A stretch of 64,000 bases of DNA from Candidatus Gottesmanbacteria bacterium. GTDB taxonomy: Bacteria; Patescibacteriota; Microgenomatia; UBA10105; UBA927. Position numbers and translations under genes: made by a program. The stretch lies in the NCBI GenBank assembly GCA_963701185.1, contig OY969569.1, positions 116,392-180,391 of the forward strand, given 5' to 3'. Each line of letters starts with the position of its first letter. Positions within the stretch are counted from its first letter, which is position 1. Below the pieces are notes generated by a model. It was given only the letters and a program-made list of their open reading frames with translations, was not told the origin of the DNA and searched no databases. Positions 8,702 through 47,113 of the stretch are shown in pieces.

Positions 8702-8722
8702 CGCTTCAGGTATAATTTGAGT

Positions 8723-10216
8723 ATGCGCAGGAACATGGTGCTTCTGATCGTTGGACTCGTAGTACTCTATGCGGTAACCCGCCTCACAAACCTCACGAAG
8801 CTCCCGATATTTACCGATGAAGCCATTTATATCCGCTGGTCCCAAATCGGCAGCCGTGACGCAAACTGGCGGTTTATTTCCCTTGTTGACGGAAAGCAGC
8901 CGCTCTTTACCTGGATTATGATGATATTCCTGCGGTTAATCCGCGATCCGCTTGTGGCAGGCCGGATGGTATCGGTTATGGCAGGATTTTTTACGACGAT
9001 CGGAATGTGGTTCACCGCGCTGGAGCTGTTTAAACGTAAAAACATAGCTTTCATTGCAAGCTTTTTGTATATTGTCATTCCGTTTGGCCTTTTCTACGAC
9101 CGCATGGCCCTGTATGACTCGTGGGTTGCGGCGTTTTCCATTTGGAATTTATACTTAGCGATACTCCTTGTGCGCCGTGTGCGGTTGGACGCAGCGTTAC
9201 TTTTGGGACTGACATTGGGCATGGGAATGCTCAATAAGACGTCAGGGTTTTTGAGTTTATATATGCTGCCGGGCACGCTTCTACTGTTTGACTGGAACAG
9301 AACCGGCAGAATGAGGCGGTTTTTGCGATGGATAGGACTTGCCGCTGTTGCGGCGGTCATTTCGCAGCTGCTGTACAGTGTCCTTCGGCTTTCCCCGCTT
9401 TTCGGCATGATAGAACAAAAAAATGCATTGTTTGTCTATCCGCTGAAAGAATGGCTTACGCATCCGTTTAATTTTCTTTTAGGCAATATTCACGGGCTTT
9501 TTGACTGGGCGATTCATTACCTTACCTGGCCGATTTTTACGGCGGCATTACTTTCCGGTTTCTCGCTGTGGAAGCGTACACGGGAGAAATTACTGTTGTT
9601 GGGTTGGTGGTTTGCACCGTTTTTTGCTCTCGCCGCCGACGGAAGAGTGCTGTATCCGCGGTTTATTCTGTTTATGATACTTCCGCTCATAATCCTGGCT
9701 TCAGCGGCCGTGGACTGGATGTGGAACCGGTTTAAAGGATCCGTCTGGCGTTGGGTATTGATCGGCGTCCTGTTCTTCGGAAGTTTCTATACGGATTTCT
9801 ATATTATTACCAATCCGATATATGCGCCGATTCCCAATGCCGATGCCGGACAATATATCAACGATTGGCCGGCCGGGTGGGGTATTCCCCAGGTGAATGC
9901 ATTTTTATTGGGTCAGGCGGAAAAAGGAAAAATTACGGTATATACGGACGGTACATTCGGCCTTCTTCCGTATGCGGTAGAGCTGTATATGGTAGACAAC
10001 CCGAACGTTACGATCAAGGGGATATATCCGATACCGGGCGACATACCGAAGGAGATGACCGATCAGGCAAAGAAAAATCCGACATTCATGATTTTTAACC
10101 AGAAGCAAAATGTCCCGCCGTGGCCGTTGACGCTTATTGCCCAGTATCAAAAGGGTCAGAATACCGTAAAGTTCATGCGATTGTACGAGATACTTCCTCA
10201 AGCACCTAGTCTATGA
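8723..10216 (+). CDS. GT-C fold glycosyltransferase (PMT_2/ArnT-like, 'FTDEAIY' type)
   Basis: About 12 TM helices. First periplasmic loop has a DE motif (LPIFTDEAIYIRW). A TATAAT at 8709-8714 sits immediately upstream. Start codon is ambiguous (TTG 8717 / ATG 8723 / ATG 8735). Confidence 0.6.
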   Translation: MRRNMVLLIVGLVVLYAVTRLTNLTKLPIFTDEAIYIRWSQIGSRDANWRFISLVDGKQPLFTWIMMIFLRLIRDPLVAGRMVSVMAGFFTTIGMWFTALELFKRKNIAFIASFLYIVIPFGLFYDRMALYDSWVAAFSIWNLYLAILLVRRVRLDAALLLGLTLGMGMLNKTSGFLSLYMLPGTLLLFDWNRTGRMRRFLRWIGLAAVAAVISQLLYSVLRLSPLFGMIEQKNALFVYPLKEWLTHPFNFLLGNIHGLFDWAIHYLTWPIFTAALLSGFSLWKRTREKLLLLGWWFAPFFALAADGRVLYPRFILFMILPLIILASAAVDWMWNRFKGSVWRWVLIGVLFFGSFYTDFYIITNPIYAPIPNADAGQYINDWPAGWGIPQVNAFLLGQAEKGKITVYTDGTFGLLPYAVELYMVDNPNVTIKGIYPIPGDIPKEMTDQAKKNPTFMIFNQKQNVPPWPLTLIAQYQKGQNTVKFMRLYEILPQAPSL

Positions 10217-11742
10217 AACGGGACAAGAGAATCATTTTTACCCTATCGATGCTCGTTGTATTCGGTTTTGCGTTTTTCATTCTGTCAGGGCTTTTCCGCC
10301 GGGGTTTTTTCGTATCCGATGACGGCGGATGGATGATTATACGGCTTAGTGCGTTTTTCCAAAGCCTGCGGGAAGGCCAGTTCCCGGTCCGTTTTCTGGG
10401 GAGGCTCAATTACAGTTACGGATACCCGGTTGCCAATTTCCTGTATCCCGGCTTTATGTATATCGGATCACTGATTCATGTGATCGGATTTTCATTCATC
10501 GATTCCGTCAAAATAATGATGGGCGCTTCCGTTCTCGTCGGCGCGTATTTTACGTTTTTGTGGCTGAAACAGTATTTCCGCGCTATGGAAAGTGCGGTAG
10601 GCGCAATCTGTTTTGTGAGTGCCCCGTATGTGCTGTTTGATCTGTATACACGAGGCTCCGTCGGGGAACTTCTGGCGATGGCGTGGGCGGCAGTGGGGTT
10701 GTACTCGATTGCAGCGAAAAAATCATGGCTCCTGTCGCTCTCTGTGTCGCTTCTTATCGTGAGCCATAATTCGCTCGCGGTTCTGTTTTTGGGATTTTAT
10801 GTTTTGTATATAACGGTACTTGGCCGGTGGCGCGATTATTGGCTCATGTTTTTTCTAGGTATCGGCATGGTGATGTTTTTTTGGTTCCCCGCCCTCTATG
10901 AACGCAAATACGTGGTGTTCGACGCGGTACAAATCGCCAATCCGGCCGCATATTTTATCAGGACATTCAATGCGATGCTTTTAGGATTTGCAGGGATACT
11001 GGCGGCGTGCACCGCGGTATTTACCGGAAAGTCGCTCGCGAAAGAAAAAATATTTTTTCTAATTTCTTTTGCAATCATATTGTTTATGGTATTGCCGGTC
11101 AGTGCGTTGCTGTGGCGGTCGGACCTTCTGATACGCATATTTCAATTTCCGTATAGATTTTTGTCTCTGACGGCGTTCATAGGCAGCTGGCTGGTGGGGT
11201 ACGTCCTCACCCATCATCGGACATTCGTACGGGTTTTATTGGCGGTTCTGTTTGTTGCTTTCAGCGCATGGTCGGTTGTATCTGCGCTCTCAAAAGTCCA
11301 ATACACCGATTCGCCGGAAGGGTATTATGTAACGAATGAAGCCACAACGACAGTTCGTGATGAATATATGCCGCGATGGGTACGTGAAAAACCTACCCAG
11401 CGGGCATATCAGAAACTAATTTTTTATCAGGGGGCGGGTGTGTTTGATGTTAAAAAAATTTCAACTCAATCCATAGACGTTACGGTTACTGCAAACGAGG
11501 ATAGTGTCGTACAAATAAACACGGTATATTATCCCGGATGGGGAGTTTCAGTTGATGATGCGGCCGTTCACATTGATTATAAAAATAAGCAGGGACTCAT
11601 GCGGGTTTCCGTCCCGCAGGGGACCCACCGTCTGGTTGCCGGTTTCAGGGAGACGATTTCCAGGTTTTTGGCCGACAATATTTCATTGGGATTTTTGATT
11701 TGGTACGGTATAGCTGTACTTGTTAAAAAACGACGAAGATGA
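10213..11742 (+). CDS. Polytopic membrane protein, 'HD...GYGYP' family, with YfhO-type C-terminal module
   Basis: N-terminal TM, then DDGGWMIIRL..REGQFPVRF..YSYGYPVANFLYP. C-terminal YYPGWGVSVDDAAVHIDYKN...VSVPQGTHRLV. Paralogous to 11739, 41634 and 45575. Confidence 0.55.
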   Translation: MKRDKRIIFTLSMLVVFGFAFFILSGLFRRGFFVSDDGGWMIIRLSAFFQSLREGQFPVRFLGRLNYSYGYPVANFLYPGFMYIGSLIHVIGFSFIDSVKIMMGASVLVGAYFTFLWLKQYFRAMESAVGAICFVSAPYVLFDLYTRGSVGELLAMAWAAVGLYSIAAKKSWLLSLSVSLLIVSHNSLAVLFLGFYVLYITVLGRWRDYWLMFFLGIGMVMFFWFPALYERKYVVFDAVQIANPAAYFIRTFNAMLLGFAGILAACTAVFTGKSLAKEKIFFLISFAIILFMVLPVSALLWRSDLLIRIFQFPYRFLSLTAFIGSWLVGYVLTHHRTFVRVLLAVLFVAFSAWSVVSALSKVQYTDSPEGYYVTNEATTTVRDEYMPRWVREKPTQRAYQKLIFYQGAGVFDVKKISTQSIDVTVTANEDSVVQINTVYYPGWGVSVDDAAVHIDYKNKQGLMRVSVPQGTHRLVAGFRETISRFLADNISLGFLIWYGIAVLVKKRRR

Positions 11743-13337
11743 AAAAAGCAGCAGGACTCCTCATCGTTCTGGTCAGTTCTGTATTGATGATCCGGTCGTT
11801 ATTCATCGCCGGATATTTCCCCATGCATGATGACACGCAGGTTGCCCGCGTTGTGGAGATGGGGAGGGCGCTCCGTCAGGGGCAATTCCCGGTACGATGG
11901 GTGTCGGACCTGGGGTATGGGTACGGGTATCCGATTTTTAATTTCTACGGGCCTCTTCCGTATTACGTGGGCGGCGCCTTATATGCCCTAGGTTTGACCG
12001 GTCTTACCGCTACGAAAATTATGATGGGAATTGGGTTGGTTCTTTCCGGTGTTACCATGTATGTGGCAATTGCGGATATCAGCGGAATTTCAGCCGGAAT
12101 TCTTGCTGCTGTATTTTATATGTTCGCCCCGTATCACGGGGTACAGGCATATGTTCGCGGTGCAGTCGGGGAATATTACGCGCTCATATTCCTGCCGCTC
12201 ATTTTATGGGGGTTTTGGAGAAGAAAAATTATTCTGACAGCCGTGGGCATCGCGGGACTTATCATATCGCATACGATTCTGGGGTTTATCGGAATGTTTT
12301 TGGTCGGCATTGCTGCGATACAAAGGAAAAAACTTTGGGGTGCCGTTTTGTTGGGGCTTGGACTCGCTGCATTCTTTTGGCTCCCTGCACTTTTTGAAAT
12401 GAAATATACAAGTGTTGCGGGGCAGGTAAACAGCGGATCGAACTTTCGGGATCACTTCGTATGTGTGAGTCAGTTATGGAATTCGGAGTGGGGATTCGGA
12501 GGATCTGCCAAAGGGTGCCTCGACGGCCTGTCATTTAAAGTCGGGAAAGTGCATCTTCTTGCCGCCCTCGCGGTACTTGTGGGCATATTGGCCGGGTTAC
12601 TGCGCGGGAGAAAAGAAAAAATGCTCGTTGTAGTCGGTATGACAATTTTTGCGGCTTCTGTGTTTTTCATGTTGAATATATCCGAATCCGTATGGAATAT
12701 GCTCCCGTTTTTTGCCTACATTCAGTATCCGTGGCGGTTCTTAGCGTTTGCGATATTCGGCATTTCGATCGTCACGAGCCAGGCTGCACACCTATTCCGG
12801 CCGGCTTTCGTACGGTGGGGCATGATCATCCTTTTGGTAGGCATGGTTTTATTTGTTGAAGCAAAACGGTTTGCGCCTCAATATACCTATAGCCGGGCGT
12901 CCAGTGATTTTGAGACAGAACAGGACATCCGTTATCGGGTATCCAAAATTTCCGACGAGTACCTGCCTCCGGCAGTACCCAGGCCTGAAAGTCCGCAGGA
13001 TGTCCCGCATGATACAATACCGCAATCAGATCTGTACACTATGGATATCCAACAATTGTCGGATGTTTACGGCAAGTTCGGATTCAGCACGAGCGAGCCG
13101 GCGGCCGTTCAAATAAACATTGCGTATTTTCCCGGATGGCACTATATCGTCAACGTGACTGATACAAAACCGCGGCTAACCAACGGCCTTCCGGTTATTA
13201 CGATACCGGCGGGAGATACCGTTGTGCAGATGTCATTTGCCGATACGCCGGTCCGCCGGATTGCAAACATCATAAGTCTGCTGTCCGTCGGCATATGTTT
13301 TTATTTATATGACAAACGGAAAAAAACCATCAGTTAA
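11739..13337 (+). CDS. Polytopic membrane protein, 'HD...GYGYP' family paralogue
   Basis: MHDDTQVARVVEM..RQGQFPVRW..GYGYGYPIFNFYGPLPYY. C-terminal AYFPGW module. ATGA overlap with 10213. Confidence 0.55.
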   Translation: MKKAAGLLIVLVSSVLMIRSLFIAGYFPMHDDTQVARVVEMGRALRQGQFPVRWVSDLGYGYGYPIFNFYGPLPYYVGGALYALGLTGLTATKIMMGIGLVLSGVTMYVAIADISGISAGILAAVFYMFAPYHGVQAYVRGAVGEYYALIFLPLILWGFWRRKIILTAVGIAGLIISHTILGFIGMFLVGIAAIQRKKLWGAVLLGLGLAAFFWLPALFEMKYTSVAGQVNSGSNFRDHFVCVSQLWNSEWGFGGSAKGCLDGLSFKVGKVHLLAALAVLVGILAGLLRGRKEKMLVVVGMTIFAASVFFMLNISESVWNMLPFFAYIQYPWRFLAFAIFGISIVTSQAAHLFRPAFVRWGMIILLVGMVLFVEAKRFAPQYTYSRASSDFETEQDIRYRVSKISDEYLPPAVPRPESPQDVPHDTIPQSDLYTMDIQQLSDVYGKFGFSTSEPAAVQINIAYFPGWHYIVNVTDTKPRLTNGLPVITIPAGDTVVQMSFADTPVRRIANIISLLSVGICFYLYDKRKKTIS

Positions 13338-14052
13338 TATTGTCATTCCCGTATATAACGAGGAGAAAGAGTTGGCCGCAAGCGTCGGGACGCTCCGGGA
13401 ATTTTTACGGGATCATCTTCCGGATTTTTCCTGGCGCATTACCATTGCTGATAATGCATCAAAGGATAAGACACTTGCGATTGCCAAGGAACTTAGTAAA
13501 AAATATGCTGAGGTTTCTTTTGTCCATCTTCCACAAAAGGGGCGCGGTAGGGCGGTAAAACACGCATGGTCACTGGACCGCGCCGATATTGAAGCGTATA
13601 TGGATGTTGATTTATCGACAGATCTCGCGCATCTGCCCCCGTTGGTACGGGCGCTTACCCGCGGATATGATATTGCCATCGGCACGCGGAATGCATGGGG
13701 ATCCCGTGTGTACGGGAGATCGACACTGCGCACGTTCACGTCAAAAATGTACATCATGCTTATCAAACTGGTGTTCTGGGTTCACTTCAGCGACGCACAG
13801 TGCGGGTTTAAGGCGGCAACCCGAAGAGTTATAAACGATATCATTCCGTATGTTGCCGACAACGAATGGTTTTTCGACACGGAGCTGTTGGTTATTTCGG
13901 AAAAATTGGGATACAGAATTTATGAAGAGCCGGTGACATGGATCGATAATCCGGGTTCTACCGTGCGTGTCATGAAAACCGCTCAGGGTGACCTTGCCGG
14001 ACTCTGGCGACTGTTTACAACACGTCCGTGGAAAGGGGTATGGAAGAAATAG
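13309..14052 (+). CDS. GT2 glycosyltransferase (Dpm1-like)
   Basis: VNIVIPVYNEEKEL...ITIADNASKDKT...DVDLSTD. Confidence 0.8.
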   Translation: MTNGKKPSVNIVIPVYNEEKELAASVGTLREFLRDHLPDFSWRITIADNASKDKTLAIAKELSKKYAEVSFVHLPQKGRGRAVKHAWSLDRADIEAYMDVDLSTDLAHLPPLVRALTRGYDIAIGTRNAWGSRVYGRSTLRTFTSKMYIMLIKLVFWVHFSDAQCGFKAATRRVINDIIPYVADNEWFFDTELLVISEKLGYRIYEEPVTWIDNPGSTVRVMKTAQGDLAGLWRLFTTRPWKGVWKK

Positions 14053-15485
14053 ATATCGCATTGGTAAAAAAGAGATCGTTAACAGGGGTGGTTGCCCTGA
14101 CGTCACGCACGTTTTTATTGCAGGTTATCGCATTTACGGCAACATTTCTTCTGACCATATTTTTAAGCCCTCAGATCTTCGGAGTTTTTTACGTCGTTTC
14201 GGCAGTCATTAATTTTTTGGGATATTTTTCCGATGTCGGTCTTGCTGCAGCGCTGATCCAGAAAAAAGAATCCCTGACCTCTGAAGATTTAAGTACCACA
14301 TTCACTATCCAGCAAATTCTTGTCAGTGCTGTCGTTATCATTGCGCTTGCCGCCTCCGGTACGATCAGCACCTTTTACGGACTGGACGCCACCGGTTTAT
14401 GGCTCTTGAGGGCTCTCATTATTTCTTTCTTCCTCTCGTCTTTGAAGACGATTCCTTCCATACTTCTTGAACGCAAACTCGATTTTAATAAACTGGTGAT
14501 TCCGCAGATATTGGAAACCTTAGGGTTTTACGTCGTTGCCGTCCTTTTGGCATGGCAAGGGTACGGAATCGTGAGCTTTACGTGGGCAGTGTTAACGCGT
14601 GCCGTTATCGGACTCGCGGCTATGTATATAATTTCACCGTGGAGAATCTCATTGAAACTTTCGCGCGATGTTGCAAAAAAACTTATGCGCTTCGGCGTGC
14701 CGTTCCAATTGAATTCATTTATTGCGCTTCTCAAGGATGATTTACTTACCGTTTTTTTGGGGAAAGTATTGCCGTTTGCCCAAATCGGATATATCGGATG
14801 GGCGAAAAAATGGGCAGAGGTACCGCTGCGGCTCATTATGGATTCCGTTATCCGCGTGACGTTCCCTGCGTTTTCGCGCCTTCAGGAACATAAAGAGCAT
14901 CTGCGGGCGGCAATAGAAAAAACTCTCTTCGGACTGTCGGTGGCAATGTTTCCTATTTCGGTCGGATTGTTGTTTTTTGTTCAGCCGCTCATCGGTATTA
15001 TTCCTAAATATGCCAAATGGGAACCTGCCATTACGGCATTTTATATCCTCACGATTTCATCAGTATTCGCGGGTTTGACGACGCCGCTTACCAACGCTCT
15101 AAATGCCATAGGGAAAATAAAAGTAACCCTGGGACTTATGGTCATGTGGACGGCGCTCACGTGGGCGCTTACCCTGACGCTCATTAAATTTTTCGGATTT
15201 AACGGTGTGCCATTGGCGTTCCTTTTGATCTCAACGACGATTGTAGTCGTGGTCGGGCTCGTGAAACAAGAGGTGCAGTTTTCTTTCTGGAACAGTATTT
15301 TCTGGGCGCTGATTGCAGCTGTCGTTCAGGGGCTATGGTACGGTGTAATACTTCGGATCGTGCCGCACTCACTCATATGGCTCATTCTTGCCGGATCAAC
15401 CGGTGTTATACTGTATGCAGGCGTCGTTTGGGTAGCTGAAAGGAAGCGTATCGGGGATACAATCAGGAGTTTTCAATCACAATGA
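14028..15485 (+). CDS. MOP-superfamily polysaccharide flippase (Wzx-like)
   Basis: 485 aa, about 12-14 TM helices. The N-terminus resembles Wzx/'polysaccharide biosynthesis protein' (KKRSLTGVVALTSRTFLLQVIAF..FLSPQIFG). Confidence 0.7.
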   Translation: MERGMEEIDIALVKKRSLTGVVALTSRTFLLQVIAFTATFLLTIFLSPQIFGVFYVVSAVINFLGYFSDVGLAAALIQKKESLTSEDLSTTFTIQQILVSAVVIIALAASGTISTFYGLDATGLWLLRALIISFFLSSLKTIPSILLERKLDFNKLVIPQILETLGFYVVAVLLAWQGYGIVSFTWAVLTRAVIGLAAMYIISPWRISLKLSRDVAKKLMRFGVPFQLNSFIALLKDDLLTVFLGKVLPFAQIGYIGWAKKWAEVPLRLIMDSVIRVTFPAFSRLQEHKEHLRAAIEKTLFGLSVAMFPISVGLLFFVQPLIGIIPKYAKWEPAITAFYILTISSVFAGLTTPLTNALNAIGKIKVTLGLMVMWTALTWALTLTLIKFFGFNGVPLAFLLISTTIVVVVGLVKQEVQFSFWNSIFWALIAAVVQGLWYGVILRIVPHSLIWLILAGSTGVILYAGVVWVAERKRIGDTIRSFQSQ

Positions 15486-17259: not shown

Positions 17260-17999
17260 AATTATCCGCAATTATTATTGCAAAAAATGAAGAGGAAAGA
17301 ATTGCAAAATGCCTGAACAGCGTCGCATTTGCAGATGAACGTATTGTCGTTGACAACGGATCTACGGATAAGACGGCAGATATCGCCCGGGCAGAGGGCG
17401 CAAAATTGTTCACCGCCGCGGAAAAAGATTTTTCCGGTCTGCGGGATTTAGGACTAAAGGAAGCAACAGGAACATGGATTCTGTACATAGATGCGGATGA
17501 AGAGGTTGATGAAAAACTACAAAAAGAAATACGGGATACTATTGAAAGTACTGATCAAAATATATATTTTGTCCGTCGTGACACGTATTTTTTGGGGTAT
17601 CACTGGCCGCACAAAGATAAAGTCGAGCGGCTATTTTTGCGAAGCGCACTTCGGGGGTGGCAGGGAACTCTTCATGAAACGCCGCTGTATGTCGGAAGTA
17701 TCGGAATGTTAATGAATCCCCTCATACACAGTACACACCGGACTCTGGAAGAAATGGTAATAAAAACTAATGAATGGTCTGCGGTAGAAGCTAAACTGAG
17801 ACTGGATGCTCATCATCCGCCGGTTGTCTGGTGGAGGTTATTACGCGTCATGATTACCGGGTTTAACAGATCGTTTTTCGCTCAGGGCGGCTGGAGAGCG
17901 GGCACCGTCGGATGGATAGAAAGCATCTATCAGGCATTCAGCATGTTCGTGACATACGCGAAGTTGTGGGAGATGCAGCAGAAGAAAAACACGGCATGA
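17256..17999 (+). CDS. GT2 glycosyltransferase (paralogue of 15482)
   Basis: LSAIIIAKNEEERI...DERIVVDNGSTDKT...LYIDADEEV. ATGA overlap at both ends. Confidence 0.8.
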   Translation: MKLSAIIIAKNEEERIAKCLNSVAFADERIVVDNGSTDKTADIARAEGAKLFTAAEKDFSGLRDLGLKEATGTWILYIDADEEVDEKLQKEIRDTIESTDQNIYFVRRDTYFLGYHWPHKDKVERLFLRSALRGWQGTLHETPLYVGSIGMLMNPLIHSTHRTLEEMVIKTNEWSAVEAKLRLDAHHPPVVWWRLLRVMITGFNRSFFAQGGWRAGTVGWIESIYQAFSMFVTYAKLWEMQQKKNTA

Positions 18000-20191
18000 A
18001 ATTATTTTTTACTAAATTTTGGCCGGTAATCAGTATTGTTGCCTTATGGTTTATTTTTTCATTCCCGTATTTTTTTAAGGGATTGGTGCCGTTCCCGTCA
18101 AAGTATTTAGTCACTTTTTTTCCGCCGTGGAATAGTCAGTACGGCATGCCGGTAAAAAACAACGCGATGCCGGACGTGATTACACAGCTGTATCCGTGGA
18201 AAAAGCTGACGATCGATACGTGGAAGTCCGGGGAAGTGCCGTTATGGAATCCGTATAGTTTTTCCGGAACTCCGCACGCCGGCAATTATCAGAGTGCTGT
18301 GTTTTCTCCTGTTAACCTGCTGTTTTTTATTCTTCCGTTTATCGATGCGTGGAGTATCATGATTCTTCTCCAGCCGCTGCTGGCTGCTTTATTCATGTAT
18401 TTGTTTGTGAGAAGTCTGGACAGGTCAAAAGAAGCATCCCTTCTGGCGTCAATTGCGTTTATGTTCTCCGGGTTTATGGTCGTCTGGATGGCATACGGGA
18501 CACTCGGGTATGCCGCACTTTTTCTGCCGCTTATCTTCTGGGGGGTGCACAAAAAGCATGGTTGGGCGGTAAGTCTGGGTGTTGCCCTGTCCCTTGTTTC
18601 CGGCCATTTTCAGGTTAGTATCTATGTCATTTTGGCTTCAATTGCATATATTTTTTGGAAAAGGCAGTGGCGGCCGCTCCTGTCAGTTTTTTTCGGTCTG
18701 ATGATTGCTGCGCCGCAAATACTCTTAGGACTCCGTTCGTTTGCTCAGTCAACACGCGGCGGTTCAGTGCTGAAGGGAGAGGTTATACCCTGGGCATACC
18801 TCATGACGCTTATTGCTCCTGACTTTTTCGGAAATCCCGTCACGCGCAACGACTGGTTCGGCCATTATGCCGAATGGGCGGGATTTATCGGCGTCACACC
18901 GTTTATGCTTGCAATATTTTCAATCGGAAAAAACAAAGTAAGGGAAATTTTGTTTTTTGTGCTCCTTGCCGCCGTGTCATTACTTTTAGCATTGCCCTCG
19001 CCTCTGAATGATCTCTTGTATATTCTGAAGATTCCGGTTCTTTCCGGAAGCGCCGCATCACGGATCATTATTCTCGTAAGTTTTTCACTGGCAGTGCTGT
19101 CTGCATACGGAATAGATAAATTGAAAGAGAAAAAACGCCCCATCATATTTCCTGTCGCCTGTCTTTGTTTTATCGGAGTAACGTGGCTTGTATTATTATT
19201 CGGCAATCTACTTCCTGCGGATAAACTATCAATCGCGATTCATAATTTTATTCTTCCCAGCGTATTTGTTGTGTTGTCGGCCGCAGCACTGGTTGTAAGA
19301 AAAAAATTCGTTCTTTATCTATTGATCGGTCTGGCGATGTTTGATGTATTCCGGTTCGCAGCGAAATGGATGCCGTTTGATCCGCGGCAGTACGTGTTCC
19401 CGCAGGTAAAATCGCTGACATATCTTGCCTCCCGTGTGGGGAATGACAGGGTTTTCGGCAATATAGGGAGCGGAGAGGTGGGTGCGCAATTTCATATTCC
19501 GCTCGTTGAGGGCTATGACGCGGTGTATCAGGCGCGGTATGGCGAATTTATGAATACAGTTTCCAAAGGGTACGTGTATCCTCCGGGTCGGTCGGTCGTA
19601 CAGTTTGATAAATACGGAGTGTACAAAACAGAAGCCCTGCAGTTGTTGGGCATTAAATACATTTATCACCGGTTAAGTGACGGGAGGAACTCTTGGGTTT
19701 TTCCATACTGGGAGTATCCGGGCATGCGCAGTATGTATAGCGATGAGAAATATGAAATATTCGAATATCCCGACGCCTATCCAAGAGCTTTTCTTGCATC
19801 AGCCTACGTTATAGGTGACATTAATACGCTTTTTTCTCAAGACGTAAACCGGAGAGATACGCTCGTTTTGGAAGAAAAACCGTCACTCGAACCGCAGGCG
19901 GGCACGGGATCGGCGGAGATTGTTTCATATACGCCGGACCGCGTCACGGTACGGACGGATTCGGAGTCGCCCAAACTGTTATTTCTCTCCGACGCGTATG
20001 ACGCGGGCTGGAAGGCTGCCGTTGACGGGAAACAATACCCCGTGTACCGCGCCGATTATGATTTCCGGGCAGTTGCCGTGCCGGCGGGGCAGCATACGGT
20101 TGAATTCAGATACGCACCTGAAGAATTCCGGTGGGGTATAATACTTAGTATTATCGGGTTTGCGGGAATATTTGCCCTGAAACGTATATGA
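17996..20191 (+). CDS. YfhO-family GT-C membrane glycosyltransferase
   Basis: Polytopic. LWNPYSFSGTPH and IAPDFFGNP motifs. C-terminal YDAGWKAAVDGKQYPVYRADYDFRAVAVPAGQHTVEFRY. Confidence 0.75.
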   Translation: MKLFFTKFWPVISIVALWFIFSFPYFFKGLVPFPSKYLVTFFPPWNSQYGMPVKNNAMPDVITQLYPWKKLTIDTWKSGEVPLWNPYSFSGTPHAGNYQSAVFSPVNLLFFILPFIDAWSIMILLQPLLAALFMYLFVRSLDRSKEASLLASIAFMFSGFMVVWMAYGTLGYAALFLPLIFWGVHKKHGWAVSLGVALSLVSGHFQVSIYVILASIAYIFWKRQWRPLLSVFFGLMIAAPQILLGLRSFAQSTRGGSVLKGEVIPWAYLMTLIAPDFFGNPVTRNDWFGHYAEWAGFIGVTPFMLAIFSIGKNKVREILFFVLLAAVSLLLALPSPLNDLLYILKIPVLSGSAASRIIILVSFSLAVLSAYGIDKLKEKKRPIIFPVACLCFIGVTWLVLLFGNLLPADKLSIAIHNFILPSVFVVLSAAALVVRKKFVLYLLIGLAMFDVFRFAAKWMPFDPRQYVFPQVKSLTYLASRVGNDRVFGNIGSGEVGAQFHIPLVEGYDAVYQARYGEFMNTVSKGYVYPPGRSVVQFDKYGVYKTEALQLLGIKYIYHRLSDGRNSWVFPYWEYPGMRSMYSDEKYEIFEYPDAYPRAFLASAYVIGDINTLFSQDVNRRDTLVLEEKPSLEPQAGTGSAEIVSYTPDRVTVRTDSESPKLLFLSDAYDAGWKAAVDGKQYPVYRADYDFRAVAVPAGQHTVEFRYAPEEFRWGIILSIIGFAGIFALKRI

Positions 20192-21201
20192 AAATCGGTT
20201 TTTTCAGCCCGTATTTTGACAGCATGAGCGGCGGTGAGCGATATCTTTTGACGCTTGCCTCTCACTGGTCGCGGGTTCATGATGTATCTCTTTTTTGGGA
20301 CGACCCGGAGATTGTACCCCGGACTCAAAAGAGGCTCAATATTGATCTATCCCGGGTCAGGACGGCGGAAAATGTTTTTAAAACAAAAAACGTTTTTAGA
20401 AAATTAGCGGTCAGCCGCGGGTACGACCTTATATTTTTCCTGACCGACGGAAGCATCCCGACGACGTTTGCCCGCCGCAACATTTTGCATTTTCAGGTGC
20501 CGTTCCGGGATATACCCGTCCATCCGATTAAATTACTCCGATTTCAGGCCATCGTGTGTAATTCTTTTTTTACAAAAGACCATCTGGAACCGCGTGTGGG
20601 TAAACGTTCCCTTGTCATTTATCCTCCCGTTGAACCGGTTAAACGGACGGGGAGTGCGAAAAAGAACGTTATCCTGTCCGTCGGGCGGTTTCATCCGCTT
20701 AAAAAACAAGATGTATTGATTGAAATATTTCAAAAAGGGAAGTTTAAGGATTATACCCTGGTTCTTTCCGGTGGTCTTCAGCCGTCGGATCAGAAGTATT
20801 TTGATTCCCTTGTGTCTCTGGCAAAAAATCTAACCGTAAAATTATTTCCCAATGTATCGTACGAGAAATTGGTTGGATTGTATAACGATGCCCGTATCTA
20901 CTGGCATGCTGCCGGGTACAGGGAGACGCGGCCGGAGCATATGGAACATTTCGGTATCACGACGGTTGAAGCAATGTCGGCCGGCTGTATTCCCGTGGTT
21001 TATAACGGCGGGGGACAGTCGGAAATCGTTACCCGCAATCTCTGGACTACCCCTGAAGAATGCCTTGAAATGACGGAGCATGTCATCCGAAATACAAAAG
21101 GTCAGAATGTTTTACGGGAGGAGATGGTGCAACGCTCAAAAAGATTCAGCGTGCCGGCATTTACAAAGGCGTTTGATGAGTTACTTTCGGATATCACGTG
21201 A
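20188..21201 (+). CDS. GT4 glycosyltransferase
   Basis: C-terminal FGITTVEAMSAGCIPVV...GGQSEIV (GT4 E-x7-E region). N-terminus MKIGFFSPYF..SGGERY. Confidence 0.85.
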   Translation: MKIGFFSPYFDSMSGGERYLLTLASHWSRVHDVSLFWDDPEIVPRTQKRLNIDLSRVRTAENVFKTKNVFRKLAVSRGYDLIFFLTDGSIPTTFARRNILHFQVPFRDIPVHPIKLLRFQAIVCNSFFTKDHLEPRVGKRSLVIYPPVEPVKRTGSAKKNVILSVGRFHPLKKQDVLIEIFQKGKFKDYTLVLSGGLQPSDQKYFDSLVSLAKNLTVKLFPNVSYEKLVGLYNDARIYWHAAGYRETRPEHMEHFGITTVEAMSAGCIPVVYNGGGQSEIVTRNLWTTPEECLEMTEHVIRNTKGQNVLREEMVQRSKRFSVPAFTKAFDELLSDIT

Positions 21202-24641: not shown

Positions 24642-24660
24642 ATACGTTATACTAACATAT

Positions 24661-28886: not shown

Positions 28887-28921
28887 ATTTCTATTATATA
28901 ATACATGTCAGACGGATTTAT

Positions 28922-35241: not shown

Positions 35242-35276
35242 GCTATAATGATAGGGTTATCATACATGACAGGCAT

Positions 35277-41603: not shown

Positions 41604-41633
41604 AAAAAATACTGAAGAGTCCGTTTTTTCTGG

Positions 41634-43205
41634 GTGCTTATTTTTTCATTATTGCCGCTTGCTTCACTATTTCATATAGGGTTGCCCGCGACGCATGACG
41701 GACAGGACCACGTAGCCAGAATTGCCAATTTTTACCGGTCGCTGGCAGAAGGGAATATCATTCCCCGGTGGGCGGGGTCTCTCAATTGGGGCTACGGACA
41801 TCCGATCCTCATGTTTTTATATCCGCTGCCGTCGTACATTGCATCTTTTTTTCATGCTCTGGGCCTTTCATTTGTTGACAGTACGAAGCTCGTGTTCGGG
41901 GTAGCCCTCATTGCCAGCGGACTGACGATGTATATGTGGATGAATGCTGCCTTTGGAAAAAAGGCGGGCATTGTCGGGGCGCTTTTGTATGTTTTTGCGC
42001 CGTACCGGTTTGTGGATTTATATGTGCGGGGTGCCATAGGGGAGCATGTGGCATTTATTTTTCCGCCGCTCGTACTGTATTTTCTCCGGAGACATTCCAT
42101 AATCGGCGTTTCATTTTCCCTTGCCGCGCTTATTCTTTCCCATAACGCCATAGCCATTATGTTCCTGCCGATTATAGGACTGTATGCTTTTTATCTTTTA
42201 CTATTTGAAGTGAAAAATAGGTGGTCGTTTATAGTTTATTGCTTATTGTCCGTCGTATTGGGTTTTGCCCTGTCCGCTTTCTTCTGGATACCCGCGTATT
42301 TTGAGGGTAAGTATACGCTTCGGGATATTGTTACGGCAGGAGATGTCGTGAAACGGTTTGTGCCCTGGTCATGGTTTCTGTATTCGCCGTGGAATTACGG
42401 ACTGGGTGAAACGATGTCAAAGTCATTGGGATTGATGCAGTGGTTTGGAGTTGCTGCCGCGATCTGGGCAATATGGAAGACGAAACAAAAAAACATACGG
42501 ATTCTGCTTGTATCCTTTTTGATAATTTTACTCGGATCATTATTTATTATGACCTCGGGGTCGCGGCCCCTGTGGATTGCCGTTACGATTTTGCAAAAGT
42601 TCCAATTTCCATGGCGCTTTCTTTCAGTATCGGTATTTGCCGCGTCAGCACTGGGAGGAATAGCATGTAGCCGGGCAAAAAAAGCATTCATTATTCCTTA
42701 TTCATTATTCATTATTCTGATTTCCGTCGGTATGTGGCACCCGAAAGCGTATATTTTCCATGATGAATCTTTTTATTCCGGCGTCTATGCCGGGACAACC
42801 GATACCGGTGAGAGCAGTCCGATCTGGTCGGTCCGATTTATGGAACATACCGCCCCGGCTCCGCTTGAGGTTATAGACGGTTCGGCGGTGATAACTGACG
42901 GCTTCCGTTCATCGACGGCGCATGAATATACGGTACAGGCCGCCAAACCTACACTCCTTCTTGAAAATACCGTGTATTTTCCTGACTGGAATGTATATGT
43001 AGACAAAACGGTTATCCCTATTGAGTACCAGAATCCGAATTACAGAGGGTTAATTACGTTTCAGGTTGCGGCAGGAACCCATAGCGTCCGGGTAGTATTT
43101 GAAAATACGAAGTTGCGCACTGTAGCCGAGAGGATTTCGCTCGCCGCTCTTGCTATAATCGCAGTGTCAGGTGTGGTACCTATCTTATGGCGGAAAAGAA
43201 CGTAA
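41634..43205 (+). CDS. Polytopic membrane protein, 'HD...GYGYP' family. The N-terminus is possibly disrupted; an upstream ATG at 41600 is in another frame
   Basis: PATHDGQDHVARIANF..EGNIIPRW..GYGHPILMFLYPLPSY. Carries in-frame repeat copy A at 42226-42251 (VYCLLS). See the finding on the T6 tract at 41642-41647. Confidence 0.55.
   Translation: MLIFSLLPLASLFHIGLPATHDGQDHVARIANFYRSLAEGNIIPRWAGSLNWGYGHPILMFLYPLPSYIASFFHALGLSFVDSTKLVFGVALIASGLTMYMWMNAAFGKKAGIVGALLYVFAPYRFVDLYVRGAIGEHVAFIFPPLVLYFLRRHSIIGVSFSLAALILSHNAIAIMFLPIIGLYAFYLLLFEVKNRWSFIVYCLLSVVLGFALSAFFWIPAYFEGKYTLRDIVTAGDVVKRFVPWSWFLYSPWNYGLGETMSKSLGLMQWFGVAAAIWAIWKTKQKNIRILLVSFLIILLGSLFIMTSGSRPLWIAVTILQKFQFPWRFLSVSVFAASALGGIACSRAKKAFIIPYSLFIILISVGMWHPKAYIFHDESFYSGVYAGTTDTGESSPIWSVRFMEHTAPAPLEVIDGSAVITDGFRSSTAHEYTVQAAKPTLLLENTVYFPDWNVYVDKTVIPIEYQNPNYRGLITFQVAAGTHSVRVVFENTKLRTVAERISLAALAIIAVSGVVPILWRKRT
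42226..42251 (+). repeat. Copy A of the dispersed 'GTTTATTGCTTATTGTCC' repeat (in-frame inside the 41634 gene)
   Basis: Exact 18-mer at 42234-42251, encoding VYCLLS. Flank cgtttata resembles the extended consensus GATTAyTG. Confidence 0.9.
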
Positions 43206-43957
43206 AACTTTCGGTCGCAATTGCCGTTTATAACGAAGAGAAAAATATCGAAGCGTGCCTCGCGTCGGTCCGCGGTTTGGCCGACGAAATCATTGTGGTG
43301 GACGGCGGATCAGGCGACCGCACGGTTTCCCTTGCCCGCGCATTTGGTTCCCGCATCATAGAGACGGATAATCCGCCGATGTTTCATTTAAATAAGCAAA
43401 AAGCACTGGATGCCTGCTCGGGGAGCTGGATACTTCAGCTTGATGCCGATGAACGGGTGACTCCCGCATTAAACAAAGAAATACGTTCGGTTATCAATGC
43501 CGGGTCGTCCGACGTTAACGGCTACTTTATCCCGCGGAAGAATTATTTTTGGGGACATTGGATGCGTAAAGGCGGGCAGTATCCGGATTATGTCATGCGG
43601 CTTGTGCGCCGCGGCAAGGCTCATTTTCCCGCCAAAAGCGTCCATGAACAAATTGATGTCATCGGTGAACCGGGGTACCTCACGGAGCCGATGGATCATA
43701 TTTCCTACCGGACCCGCGAAGATTATTGGAGGAAGGCGGAGAGTTATACAACGCTTGCCGCCATGGAAATGAAAAGAGACGGAGTCGGCAAAAACCCGTG
43801 GACGTGGTTTACCTACAATATTATAAAGCCGCAAATGACATTCCTTTCGTTGCTTATCCGTCATAAGGGATTTATGGACGGTTGGTACGGGTTGGTATTT
43901 GCCTACTTTTCCGCCCTGCATTTTCCGATTACGTATAAAAAATTCCTAAAGTTATGA
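43187..43957 (+). CDS. GT2 glycosyltransferase (paralogue of 15482 and 17256)
   Basis: LSVAIAVYNEEKNI...DEIIVVDGGSGDRT...LQLDADERV. Confidence 0.8.
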   Translation: MAEKNVKLSVAIAVYNEEKNIEACLASVRGLADEIIVVDGGSGDRTVSLARAFGSRIIETDNPPMFHLNKQKALDACSGSWILQLDADERVTPALNKEIRSVINAGSSDVNGYFIPRKNYFWGHWMRKGGQYPDYVMRLVRRGKAHFPAKSVHEQIDVIGEPGYLTEPMDHISYRTREDYWRKAESYTTLAAMEMKRDGVGKNPWTWFTYNIIKPQMTFLSLLIRHKGFMDGWYGLVFAYFSALHFPITYKKFLKL

Positions 43958-44493
43958 AAAAGAAAGTGATCATCTTGTTGATTACTGTTTATTGCTTATT
44001 GTCCACTGTTTCTTCAGTTTATGCCGACTATGTTCTTCCGTACCCGTCCTACATGCCTGGAAATAAACTATACCGGCTCACGAGGATTGTTGATCAATTA
44101 AAAAAGTATTGGTATCGGGGCAACATTGCGCAGACGAAGTATCACCTTGCATTGTCGGATAAGTATCTGGTCGAGGCGAGTACCCTCATGGAATATAAGC
44201 AGTACCTTCTCGGAGCTGATGCGCTGCGGAGATCCGATGCGGAGTTTGCGACGCTACCGGCATACGTTGCCGGCGCCAAAAAAGAAGGAGTCGACGTGCA
44301 TGAGCTGCAGCTTCTTCTTGCGGCTGCAGCCGGGAAACACAGGGAAGTATTAACCGGGCTTCTCCCCGTTGTCCCGCCGGACTTTACCTGGACTCCGGAG
44401 AAATCCAAGCCGACGGCGCTGCCTTTAAGCGACATAATCTCAGCATCAGTTGGTATTAGACAACGTATTGCCAGTGCAACAGGATCCCTATAA
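43954..44493 (+). CDS. Secreted hypothetical protein (signal peptide, 179 aa)
   Basis: MKKKVIILLITVYCLLSTVSSVYA|DY is an Sec-type signal peptide. The mature part is helical and Ala-rich, with no recognised domain. The h-region of the signal peptide is encoded by repeat copy B. Confidence 0.55.
   Translation: MKKKVIILLITVYCLLSTVSSVYADYVLPYPSYMPGNKLYRLTRIVDQLKKYWYRGNIAQTKYHLALSDKYLVEASTLMEYKQYLLGADALRRSDAEFATLPAYVAGAKKEGVDVHELQLLLAAAAGKHREVLTGLLPVVPPDFTWTPEKSKPTALPLSDIISASVGIRQRIASATGSL
43980..44005 (+). repeat. Copy B of the dispersed repeat (26 nt, GATTACTGTTTATTGCTTATTGTCCA)
   Basis: Matches the right inverted repeat of the 50850-51286 cassette at 25/26 positions. Encodes LITVYCLLS of the signal peptide. 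Confidence 0.9.
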
Positions 44494-44495
44494 TC

Positions 44496-45578
44496 ATGGC
44501 ACTCATCGCAGTGTTACTATTTTTAGCGGCAATAGGCATCGTAGGAGTTTTTTCCTACGGGTTTATTGATCCGAATTTGGTTTTATCCGCACACGTCATG
44601 TTTTCCCGGATTGCGGACCGGCCGGCGGCGGCCGTCATATTTTTCGTTATCCTTCTTGTTCTGTTTGCCGCGTACCTGTATTTTCTGAAGCACCCGCCGA
44701 AGTTTTGGGTGATACTGGCGGCGGCCGTCATGCTGGTTTTCTCGTATCCGGCTCTTACCTATGACGTATTCAACTACATCGCTACTGCCAAAGTTACATA
44801 TACATACCATGAAAACCCGTATATCATCATGCCGGTCGAGATCCCGAACGAACCCAATCTGGCATTTACAAGGGCGGCAAATAAAACAGCACTGTACGGG
44901 CCTGTGTGGATCGCATTGAGCGCCGTCCCGCATTATCTGGGGATGGGCAGCGTATGGCAGACAATCATTGCATTTAAGGCCATGAATTTGGCTGCGTATC
45001 TGGGGTTTTGTTATCTCATATACCGGGTCACTAAGAAGACGGCGAATGTTATTTTTTTTGCCGCCAATCCGCTGGTTTTGATAGAAGTGCTTATGAACGG
45101 ACATAATGACATTTACATGATGCTTGCGGCACTCGGAGGCCTGTTGTTGTGGCGTCAAAACAGGAAAGTCAGCGGATTTTTACTCTTCGCTGTTTCATGG
45201 CTGGTAAAGGGCGCGACCATAGTTCTTCTCCCGCTGTTATTTTTGAAAAATATATCAACGGAACGTCTTCTTCTCATTGCTTATTGCTTATTGTCCTTCG
45301 TTTTTTTTGTTATTGCCCCGGTCCGTGAAGAACTCTATCCATGGTATGCAGTCTGGCTTATTGCATCCGCGTCGCTGTTGCCTCTGAAGAACCACCGGTT
45401 CATATTCGGATTCACTGTCGTATTGTCTTTTGCGCTGGAGCTGCGTGCACTCCCGTATATGTGGATGGGATATTATGAAGGACCGGGACCGGCGCTTCGG
45501 CTGATACTCACTCTTGTTCCCGTTGTTGTGTATGCAGCATATACCGGGTTCCGGTATGTCTCTCAAAGAAAAACATGA
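44496..45578 (+). CDS. Polytopic membrane protein, putative GT-C-like (paralogue of 7258..8415)
   Basis: SYPALTYDVFNYIATAKVTYTYHENPY. Contains repeat copy C as an apparent 6-codon insertion relative to 7258. Confidence 0.5.
   Translation: MALIAVLLFLAAIGIVGVFSYGFIDPNLVLSAHVMFSRIADRPAAAVIFFVILLVLFAAYLYFLKHPPKFWVILAAAVMLVFSYPALTYDVFNYIATAKVTYTYHENPYIIMPVEIPNEPNLAFTRAANKTALYGPVWIALSAVPHYLGMGSVWQTIIAFKAMNLAAYLGFCYLIYRVTKKTANVIFFAANPLVLIEVLMNGHNDIYMMLAALGGLLLWRQNRKVSGFLLFAVSWLVKGATIVLLPLLFLKNISTERLLLIAYCLLSFVFFVIAPVREELYPWYAVWLIASASLLPLKNHRFIFGFTVVLSFALELRALPYMWMGYYEGPGPALRLILTLVPVVVYAAYTGFRYVSQRKT
45279..45296 (+). repeat. Copy C of the dispersed repeat (GCTTATTGCTTATTGTCC, 17/18)
   Basis: Encodes AYCLLS. 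Immediately followed by a T8 homopolymer (45300-45307). Confidence 0.85.
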
Positions 45579-47113
45579 AAAAAGGAATAATTATTTTCAT
45601 GATGCTGTGTATTCTTTTTGCCGTGTGGCCGCTGTTTGGCAGAAACTATATCCCGACGCACGACGGAGAATACCACATCATCCGCATTGTCGAATTTTCC
45701 CGTATGCTGGGAGAAGGCTACGTAGTGCCCCGATGGGCGCCGGATATGAACAGCGGCTACGGGATACCGATTTTTAATTTCCATTACCCCCTCCCGAACT
45801 ATATCGGTTCATTTGTCCGGGTTTTCACCGGGGATGCAGTGCGTGCGTTCCAGATGAGCATGGGAGTAGGGTACATCGTGCTTGCCGCAGCTGCATATTT
45901 TTGGTTACTCACCCTGTTTGGCGCCCTTCCGGCTGCGGTGGGAGCCATCGTTGCCGCATTCGTCCCGTACGTTTTTGTTGATATGTATGTGCGGGGTTCT
46001 ATCGGTGAAATCTGGGCGACTGCGTTCTTATTTATATGCTTCTATCTCCTGGAAAAGAAAAAATTTGTTTGGTTTGCCCTTGCATACGGACTCCTCATCC
46101 TCTCGCATAACATCATGGCAATGCTCTATACGCCGTTTTTGTTGGGATATGCGCTGATCCGGAATAAAAAGGCAGCCCTGTGGATGCTGGGCGGAATTGG
46201 TATGTCCGCTTTTTTCTGGATGCCTGCGCTTCTGGAATCCAAATACGTGGTCGGCCTTAATACCGTAAATTTCCGGGAACATTTTGTACAGCTGTACCAG
46301 CTTCTTATCCCATCGTGGGGTTCAGGGTTTTCCGGAAGCGGGTCATTCGGCAATACAATATCATTTCAAATAGGTCTCGTGCCGATACTTGCCTTTGTCG
46401 GAGCATTATATTCATCACGTAAAAAAATTCTTCTGTATTTTATTTTCTTTTTTGCCGTGTGCGTTCTCCTTATGTTGCCCCTGTCGCTGCCGGTATGGGA
46501 ATTTATCAAGCCCCTTGCGCTCATGCAGTACCCGTGGAGATTGCTGTCGTTTGTTATTCCTATAGCCGGTTTTTGTGCGGCTTTTTGGGTATCGTTGATG
46601 AAACGGAAATGGCCAGGGATAGCAATCGCCATTCTTGCAGTTATTTTTGCCGCTTCTTACGCACGTCCGGTTCTCTATGAACCCAGAAATGAAGCCTATT
46701 ATATGTCGCGGGCCAATTTTACCGATGGCACATCATCCATGGGAAATAGTTTTTCTACAATCTGGACGGGGTGGAAGGATACGCGCCCGAAAGATCCGAT
46801 CGTTGTGGAAAGCGGGCAGCTGAGGAAGATCCACCAGATGCGGTATCTTAATAAAACATTTGATGTCATTATGGTCGGCACAGGGCGCGTTACCGTCAAT
46901 ACGCTTTATTTTCCGGGGTGGACAGCAACTGTAGACGGGAAAAACGTACCCATCGATTATCAGAAAGACGGTATTATTCATTTTTCCGTTCCTGCAGGAG
47001 CACACCTGATACGCGTTATTTTTACCGATACGCCGATCCGAAATGCGGGAAACATCATTTCGATCGCCAGCGTGGCTGTCCTGGCCGTTTTAGGGTATAC
47101 TTCTTTACAATGA
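45575..47113 (+). CDS. Polytopic membrane protein, 'HD...GYGYP' family paralogue
   Basis: PTHDGEYHIIRIVEF..GEGYVVPRW..GYGIPIFNFHYPLPNY. C-terminal LYFPGWTATVDGKNVPIDYQKDGIIHFSVPAGAHLIRVIF. Confidence 0.55.
   Translation: MKKGIIIFMMLCILFAVWPLFGRNYIPTHDGEYHIIRIVEFSRMLGEGYVVPRWAPDMNSGYGIPIFNFHYPLPNYIGSFVRVFTGDAVRAFQMSMGVGYIVLAAAAYFWLLTLFGALPAAVGAIVAAFVPYVFVDMYVRGSIGEIWATAFLFICFYLLEKKKFVWFALAYGLLILSHNIMAMLYTPFLLGYALIRNKKAALWMLGGIGMSAFFWMPALLESKYVVGLNTVNFREHFVQLYQLLIPSWGSGFSGSGSFGNTISFQIGLVPILAFVGALYSSRKKILLYFIFFFAVCVLLMLPLSLPVWEFIKPLALMQYPWRLLSFVIPIAGFCAAFWVSLMKRKWPGIAIAILAVIFAASYARPVLYEPRNEAYYMSRANFTDGTSSMGNSFSTIWTGWKDTRPKDPIVVESGQLRKIHQMRYLNKTFDVIMVGTGRVTVNTLYFPGWTATVDGKNVPIDYQKDGIIHFSVPAGAHLIRVIFTDTPIRNAGNIISIASVAVLAVLGYTSLQ

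Follow-up and report, generated by a model that had tools for sequence, protein, structure and literature searches.

A shared C-terminal beta-sandwich module in YfhO and short PTPS_related proteins of a Gottesmanbacteria glycosylation island is probably an inherited part of one GT-C glycosyltransferase lineage

Introduction

How do two groups of membrane proteins with seemingly different N-terminal regions come to end in the same C-terminal segment? This question is raised by a 64,000-nucleotide stretch of DNA from Candidatus Gottesmanbacteria (contig OY969569.1, positions 116,392 to 180,391), referred to here as the window; all feature coordinates below are positions within it. The window encodes four YfhO-like proteins, here called Y1 to Y4, and four proteins with an 'HD…GYGYP' motif, here called H1 to H4, and a preliminary description of the sequence had proposed that a mobile periplasmic domain, possibly carbohydrate-binding, had been placed at the C-termini of both. 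We propose, with a probability of roughly 0.75, that the shared module is an inherited, lineage-defining part of a GT-C (C-fold glycosyltransferase) architecture with the sugar-transfer mechanism described below, and not a shuffled domain. The two groups would represent sister branches within a single lineage of membrane-bound GT-C glycosyltransferases, namely the YfhO family (PF09586) and a short form of the PTPS_related family (PF10131).

Eight genes of two families

All eight genes are present as had been described. Y1 (17912-20191, + strand, 759 residues), Y2 (21198-23390, +, 730 residues), Y3 (30604-33000, +, 798 residues) and Y4 (32935-35241, -, 768 residues) score 75.8, 79.4, 83.0 and 77.1 bits against the Pfam YfhO model, and on the full protein all four pass its gathering threshold of 28.5 bits as YfhO-family GT-C glycosyltransferases. 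Among the others, H3 (41634-43205, +, 523 residues) and H4 (45575-47113, +, 512 residues) pass the PTPS_related threshold of 26.4 bits with 31.4 and 53.2 bits, respectively. H2 (11739-13337, +, 532 residues) reaches 14.0 bits, below this cutoff, and H1 (10213-11742, +, 509 residues) has no Pfam match; the part of the PTPS_related model that is covered is positions 1-316 of 621. Both are full-length BLASTP matches of the two recognized members (H1 to H3, E = 3e-66, and to H4, E = 1e-60; H2 to H3, E = 4e-62, and to H4, E = 2e-59), and we classify them as short PTPS_related-like GT-C proteins. The YfhO model matches H4 (21.0 bits) and H3 (15.0 bits) below threshold and at the C-terminus only, and it does not match H1 or H2. 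Within each group the proteins are mutual full-length homologues: H1 to H4 share 27-31% identity (BLASTP, E = 1e-43 to 1e-66), and Y1 to Y4 likewise share 27-31%. Because identity inside each group is this low, we regard the eight proteins as old paralogues rather than recent copies.

A homologous module ends all eight proteins

A homologous beta-rich module of ~75 residues, with the signature YyPGW-A-VDG…fRav-vP-G-H, ends all four Y and all four H proteins. The C-terminal 110 residues of the Y and of the H proteins each served to build a hidden Markov model (HMM), which was searched, with filters off, against all 423 stop-to-stop open reading frames (ORFs) of the window. Apart from the four Y proteins themselves, the Y-tail HMM matched the C-termini of the H proteins, all four of them, ahead of any other ORF (E = 9e-9, 5e-6, 3e-3 and 5e-3; next match, E = 1.8), and in the reverse search the H-tail HMM recovered exactly the four Y proteins (E = 3e-6 to 0.03; next match, E = 1.5). 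We also compared the C-terminal parts of two family alignments, one of 59 H-family sequences (A1) and one of 65 Y-family sequences (A2). This profile-profile comparison, a check that the preliminary description had suggested, upheld the homology: hhalign gave a probability of 98.7% (E = 2.2e-16) over 83 columns with 29% identity, against 0.4% (E = 0.16) for the reversed-profile control.

Public models point to the same residues. Positions ~757-835 of the 835-position Pfam YfhO model match the C-termini of Y1, Y3 and Y4 and, below threshold, those of H3 and H4, and the C-terminal ends of the NCBIfam PgfM1/PgfM2 models match the C-termini of Y1, Y3, Y4 and H4. When isolated module fragments were searched against Pfam, six of the eight matched the tail of the YfhO model. 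The module is already the last ~80 positions of that model, and its presence on all eight proteins, as first noticed from the sequence alone, is borne out by reciprocal HMMs, hhalign and the tails of Pfam and NCBIfam models alike.

AlphaFold models of H4 (mean predicted local distance difference test score, pLDDT, 88.9) and Y3 (pLDDT 91.2) agree in the order of seven to eight short strands that surround the YxPGW turn and lead into a long helix. The shared segment had been placed in the last ~60 residues; in these models it consists of ~75 residues of strands and a helix of ~25 residues, so that it covers the last ~100 residues. In Y3 the strands span residues 700-767 and the helix residues 770-797 (32677-33000, +; AlphaFold2 secondary structure and hhalign), and in H4 they span residues 409-483 and 487-511 (46787-47113, +; likewise from AlphaFold2 and hhalign), where the isolated fragment matches YfhO model positions 779-823. 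The module occupies residues 659-737 of Y1 (with the terminal transmembrane (TM) helix, 19886-20191, +), 655-735 of Y4 (32935-33279, -), 398-481 of H1 (11404-11742, +), 416-503 of H2 (12984-13337, +) and 407-492 of H3 (42852-43205, +), the last matching YfhO model positions 763-823. The single TM helix reported to follow the module is thus found in seven of the eight proteins. The remaining protein, Y2, ends directly after its module (residues 651-730; 23148-23390, +): it has no hydrophobic tail ('…HTILLKFER*'), and no helix is encoded downstream in any frame. Either the terminal helix may be dispensable or the Y2 copy may be decaying.

Most of the eight proteins have basic residues after the last helix. 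In addition, a protein found in the genome survey described below (locus L106, 3347-6577, -) consists of a YfhO core, the module and the TM helix fused to a C-terminal S-adenosylmethionine-dependent methyltransferase (Methyltransf_23, 88.6 bits), a fusion that suggests coupled glycosylation and methylation. From these basic residues and this fusion we conclude that the C-terminus is cytoplasmic and that the module lies outside, on the same side as the catalytic loop. The module is therefore, as had been supposed, a genuine, homologous, beta-rich and extracytoplasmic unit.

The membrane cores are homologous

The N-terminal TM regions of the two groups had been considered otherwise unrelated. 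Our comparison contradicts this: homology extends over ~330 columns, and the models of both groups have GT-C folds. The family alignments match over 329 collinear columns (hhalign probability 99.2%, E = 6.4e-20; residues 1-341 of H4 against 1-403 of Y3), and alignments restricted to the cores match over 331 columns with a probability of 96.2%. In the core-only controls, the probability was 0.5% for the H core against the reversed YfhO core, 0.1% for the H core against the MOP flippase encoded in the window and 0.6% for the YfhO core against the same flippase. The H core against the PMT_2 paralogues of the window, which belong to another GT-C family, gave 89% over only 151 columns. Collinear core matches are found even by pairwise BLASTP, for example between residues 86-211 of H2 and 141-267 of Y1 (31% identity), and the membrane cores of both models, H4 and Y3, have GT-C folds.

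The H proteins had also been said to lack the hallmark motifs of YfhO enzymes. An Asp is invariant in each family (D30 of H4 in 59 H-family sequences, and D67 of Y3 in 65 Y-family sequences), and in both models it lies at the N-terminus of the first extracytoplasmic loop helix. In both families it is followed 24 residues later by an invariant or near-invariant Trp (D30 to W54, and D67 to W91), and the equal spacing extends to further conserved residues, D30/W54/P56/G61 in H4 corresponding to D67/W91/P93/G98 in Y3. The Trp motif reads 'P-R-W-A-P…S-G-Y-G' in the H family and 'P-L-W-N-P…S-G' in the Y family; the invariant Asp and the W-x-P…S-G motif are therefore present in the H proteins at identical spacing. 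We take 'GYGYP' to be the H-branch form of the YfhO motif 'WNPY.FSG.P', and we assign to both groups the conserved acidic residue of the first extracytoplasmic loop of GT-C enzymes, for which a catalytic role is putative. The suggestion of a functional alliance between the HD…GYGYP proteins and YfhO-type glycosyltransferases is supported.

The two branches differ between the core and the module. In the middle of Y3, the model shows extra helices (residues ~382-498) and an alpha/beta domain of ~200 residues (~500-690), which have no counterparts in H4; the last core helix ends at residue ~498 and a soluble region (499-769) leads to the final helix (770-797). In the model of H4, the last core helix (346-363) is separated from the module by ~45 residues, and the whole outside region comprises ~120 residues (364-486).

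Distribution of the module

A profile of the module, searched without filters against 1.84 billion representative sequences, matched 53,456 clusters at E ≤ 1e-3, of which 13,239 reached E ≤ 1e-10. We surveyed the best 150 of the 53,456 clusters, which were classified by local HMMs of the two cores, together with 121 genome matches, giving ~270 proteins. Nearly all of the long proteins among the best 150 are composed of a YfhO or PTPS core and the module, or tandem fusions of such units, which reach four units in a protein of 3,329 residues (P0303). Eight units or cores were missed by the narrow HMMs; two of them lie in proteins that Pfam recognizes as YfhO (P0346 and P0429), and single-sequence hhalign found three to be YfhO-type (probability 95.7-98.0%) and gave weak hints of a PTPS_related-type core for two (42-51%).

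The genome matches came from a degenerate DNA pattern for YYPGWxAxVDG, which was found at no fewer than 120 loci when one genome per GTDB species was searched. The loci listed belong to the Candidate Phyla Radiation (CPR), Chloroflexota, Bacteroidota, Gemmatimonadota, Myxococcota, Acidobacteriota, Elusimicrobia, Planctomycetota, Proteobacteria and two archaeal groups. Among the matches listed, all 121 are full modules, and a YfhO-type or PTPS_related-type core precedes the module wherever the ORF is long enough and the core recognizable.

Among the ~270 proteins, as far as their cores could be classified, we found no module on its own, behind a core from a different GT-C family or on a scaffold outside GT-C, nor is it present on the remaining 11 GT-C proteins encoded in the window (nine of PMT_2 type and two GT87-like). 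The domain-architecture survey that had been suggested as a check on mobility thus revealed no non-homologous scaffold bearing the module, and its description as a mobile domain is not sustained. Because the module, throughout the proteins surveyed, occurs on YfhO-type or PTPS_related-type cores where these are classifiable, and because these cores are homologous, we consider it to be inherited and not mobile. The distribution favours vertical inheritance within one GT-C lineage, in which the middle domain would have been gained or lost and the module not shuffled.

We also considered two kinds of apparent exception. Stand-alone module ORFs might have represented free proteins; both of the ORFs that we examined proved to be pieces of broken YfhO genes, P0246 being preceded by a YfhO ORF of 611 residues and P0267 by ORFs in which positions 210-430 of the YfhO core and the middle domain are recognizable. 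At two loci (L001, 2525-4450, and L004, 2009-4366), YfhO genes are broken into runs of two or three ORFs, and the breakpoints recur in several independent samples; these may be pseudogenes or genuinely split enzymes. In Bacteroidota, proteins of 830-870 residues (L008, L032, L034, L110 and ~15 other Prevotella/Segatella/Bacteroides loci) reach the threshold of the Pfam YfhO model through the module only. A third, unrelated core was ruled out here by hhalign to the YfhO core (probability 97.3%, E = 2e-11), and we read the N-terminal part of these proteins as a divergent YfhO core.

The survey also revealed some unusual architectures. Giant proteins made of two to four tandem units of GT-C core and module include P0303, P0304, P0305 (3,051 residues) and P0306-P0315, among others. 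Some of these proteins combine units of different type or bear additional parts: the third unit of P0317 is PMT_2-like, and tetratricopeptide (TPR) repeats form the end of P0396. In three proteins of Chloroflexota (L016, 1619-4444, -; L117, 385-3537, -; L099, 2-2860, +), a PTPS_related core, the module and the TM helix are followed by 400-540 residues of repeated beta-rich segments with weak matches to NPCBM_assoc and AA9, so that the module is internal there.

Alternative explanations

Short beta-strand-like motifs at the ends of membrane proteins could resemble each other by composition or chance, and the pairwise identity of the module between the families is indeed low (14-32%). We give this explanation almost no weight. 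The reciprocal HMM searches were specific within the window, hhalign separated the module (E = 2e-16) from its reversed control (E = 0.16), the independent YfhO, PgfM1 and PgfM2 models match the same residues, every one of the 121 listed genome matches of the DNA pattern was a full module, and the predicted strand order is identical in the H4 and Y3 models. Compositional similarity was further ruled out by the reversed-profile and unrelated-membrane-protein controls. Alternatively, two unrelated membrane architectures might each have acquired a mobile periplasmic domain that binds carbohydrate. In favour of this view, the module is separable from the YfhO-specific middle domain and follows the core by only ~45 residues in the H proteins, it is more alike between the families than the core is (29% against 19% identity in hhalign), with a better score, and some module-bearing cores could not be classified with the tools used. 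Nevertheless, this scenario is largely refuted by the homologous and collinear cores, both of GT-C fold, and we consider it improbable; the module also has the same position in both groups, as the last extracytoplasmic element before the final helix, it occurs on no other scaffold among the ~270 proteins surveyed and on none of the 11 further GT-C proteins of the window, and the stand-alone copies examined are gene fragments. Several observations nonetheless weigh against the inherited, acceptor-related module that we propose. The survey covers ~270 of more than 53,000 module-bearing clusters, and three cores or units, namely P0450 and the respective first units of P0396 and P0409, were left unclassified by single-sequence hhalign. 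The isolated fragments matched nothing meaningful in Pfam beyond the YfhO tail, apart from two chance-level matches (E ~0.06), and the isolated module had no relative among PDB sequences; searches of these with Y3 and H4 likewise gave no match. In addition, Y2 works, or at least persists, without a terminal helix.

A last point of this kind concerns function. The most conserved positions of the module are W (99%), G (99%), another G (91%), P and alternating hydrophobic residues, and this dominance of Gly, Pro, Trp and hydrophobic residues fits a structural role as well as ligand binding. The module may thus be real and inherited but structural, buttressing the extracytoplasmic loops and docking the last TM helix on the core, for example by completing a groove for the lipid carrier or by mediating oligomerization. 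Such residues are typical fold determinants, the isolated module shows no similarity to any Pfam carbohydrate-binding module (CBM), and a tether to the membrane at both ends would limit its reach towards distant polymers. On the other hand, Y2 keeps the module though it has no helix to dock, related GT-C enzymes such as AftD bind glycan via periplasmic beta-sandwiches, and the conserved polar residues, namely the D of VDG (87%), an R (82%) and the H of G-x-H (89%), could form a binding site. We therefore regard a purely structural role as a minority view, if one to be taken seriously, and propose D, R and H as candidate binding-site residues. By analogy with such enzymes, a role in positioning the acceptor or in closing the active site can be inferred for the module, and binding of carbohydrate or acceptor is a reasonable guess. 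A stronger version, in which the beta-sandwich and helix form a distinct, so far undelineated domain that both defines a YfhO/PTPS_related subclade of GT-C enzymes in bacteria and archaea and serves as its acceptor-recognition element, can be put forward only tentatively.

Proposed mechanism and gene neighbourhood

In our preferred explanation, inheritance within one lineage, the two branches have a common architecture. Both possess a polytopic core with the invariant Asp and, 24 residues on, the W-x-P…S-G motif; a beta-sandwich of ~75 residues and seven to eight strands that ends the extracytoplasmic part; and, usually, a final TM helix that takes the chain back into the cytoplasm. Between core and module, the YfhO branch has additional TM helices and the alpha/beta domain of ~200 residues, and the short branch a joint of ~45 residues.

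Directly downstream of H1 and H2 lies a GT2 gene (13309-14052, +; PF00535), whose best NCBIfam matches, all below cutoff, are PgfS, dolichyl-phosphate hexose transferase, ArnC, AglJ and PpgS. Its product is likely a polyprenyl-phosphate-sugar synthase that makes the donor. It is followed by a gene for an MOP/Wzx-type flippase (14028-15485, +; Polysacc_synt_3, 182 bits; NCBIfam matches to MOP flippase and O-glycosylation flippase). Together, H1-H2, the GT2 and the flippase match the three-component arrangement established for YfhO systems. In the mechanism that we propose, the neighbouring GT2 would make a polyprenyl-phosphate sugar, the MOP flippase would flip it across the membrane, and each GT-C paralogue would, by analogy with characterized systems, pass the sugar on, outside the membrane, to a protein or polymer of the cell surface. 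With a membrane tether at either end, the beta-sandwich would lie beside the catalytic loop and may help to hold the acceptor or close the active site. This role is modelled on the periplasmic beta-sandwich/CBM domains of AftD and on the periplasmic domain of PglB/STT3.

From 7 to 47 kb of the window, glycosylation genes follow one another with hardly a break, as an island. Over ~40 kb (7240-47113) it contains four YfhO, four PTPS_related-like, nine PMT_2 and two GT87-like genes, besides seven GT2 genes, one GT4 gene and the MOP flippase, and it sits in what appears to be a ~1-Mb CPR (Gottesmanbacteria-like) genome. The nine PMT_2 genes start at 8717, 23373 (-), 25563, 27171 (-), 28922, 35277, 36893, 38392 and 40080, and the two GT87-like genes at 7240 and 44496. 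The latter (44496-45578) encodes a polytopic protein of 360 residues with a weak NCBIfam match to alpha-(1->6)-mannopyranosyltransferase A; together with an ORF of 179 residues that has no family match (43954-44493), it is located between H4 and the GT2 gene that follows H3. A GTG-initiated ORF of 411 residues (46918-48153) overlaps the end of H4 by ~195 nt. It looks GT4-type by eye only, from an internal 'MKIAIDITPLE…', and its true start is probably that internal Met, just downstream of H4.

Comparison with known systems

The YfhO family includes B. subtilis and S. aureus YfhO, L. monocytogenes Lmo1079, streptococcal PgtC2 and PgfM1/PgfM2, and Y1 to Y4 belong to it by the Pfam threshold. YfhO enzymes transfer sugars from undecaprenyl-phosphate (C55-P) carriers to lipoteichoic or wall teichoic acids (LTA/WTA) or to protein regions rich in Ser/Thr, and a large loop separates their last two TM helices; in their three-component systems, a GT-A enzyme makes the C55-P-sugar, a flippase moves it and the GT-C enzyme transfers it outside (PMC5836110, PMC8035078, PMC12041528). 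The polytopic core, the large outside region between the last two helices and the final helix of this family (PMC5836110) are all found in the Y3 model. An extracellular carbohydrate-binding domain on YfhO has already been the subject of speculation in a review (PMC8035078). The window proteins differ from these enzymes as distant CPR members, and the H proteins differ further in that they match the model through the module only (≤21 bits) and are without the extra helices and the ~200-residue middle domain.

H3 and H4 resemble PTPS_related proteins in scoring above the family threshold, with H1 and H2 as their full-length homologues. Unlike the family model, the H proteins of the window are short forms, in which its C-terminal half is replaced by the linker, the module and the helix. 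We know of no PTPS_related member with demonstrated activity. Many PTPS_related homologues carry a precomputed PF09586 match at the C-terminus. PF10131 is listed in the Pfam GT-C clan CL0111 (PMC7801869).

By aligned length, the closest solved structure is AftD (PDB 6WBX). In this enzyme, the GT-C core is followed by a periplasmic part with alpha/beta domains and acceptor-binding beta-sandwich/CBM domains, after which the chain re-enters the membrane (bioRxiv 10.1101/2019.12.22.885152). The order of GT-C core, periplasmic alpha/beta and beta-sandwich domains and re-entry by a TM helix is thus shared, whereas AftD is much larger (~1,400 residues), with three CBMs and a four-helix bundle that binds acyl carrier protein (ACP), and has no detectable sequence similarity to the module. 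Durairaj et al. 2023 (Nature, PMC10584680) reported, as 'component 27', that many bacterial membrane proteins annotated as 'YfhO' form a separate family within an STT3/PglB/YfhO superfamily; annotation as YfhO from a partial match is of the same kind as in our H and Bacteroidota proteins.

Significance

The proteins of the window are new, distant members of two known Pfam families in one known clan. Because both groups are related branches of one enzyme superfamily, the tail that they have in common is for the most part an ordinary finding. We found no earlier work that delineates or discusses the tail as a domain, and delineating it is a modest refinement rather than a new kind of system.

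The result has nevertheless some practical consequences. The module drives 'YfhO' labels where the Pfam YfhO model misses the core, as in PTPS_related-type proteins and in the 830-870-residue proteins of Bacteroidota, and splitting it out as a domain of its own would sharpen the family boundaries inside GT-C. The module is a conserved element, putatively beside the active site, in enzymes whose family attaches sugars to teichoic acids and surface proteins, and it is an obvious target for mutagenesis. The kinship with YfhO also suggests a concrete functional hypothesis for PTPS_related proteins, namely extracytoplasmic transfer from a lipid-phosphate sugar. If the module does recognize the acceptor, then its divergence among the eight paralogues would set which surface polymer or protein each of them decorates, and it would offer a way into the glycosylation of the cell surface that is so heavily expanded in CPR bacteria, and into 'YfhO' proteins that are mis-annotated through this domain only.

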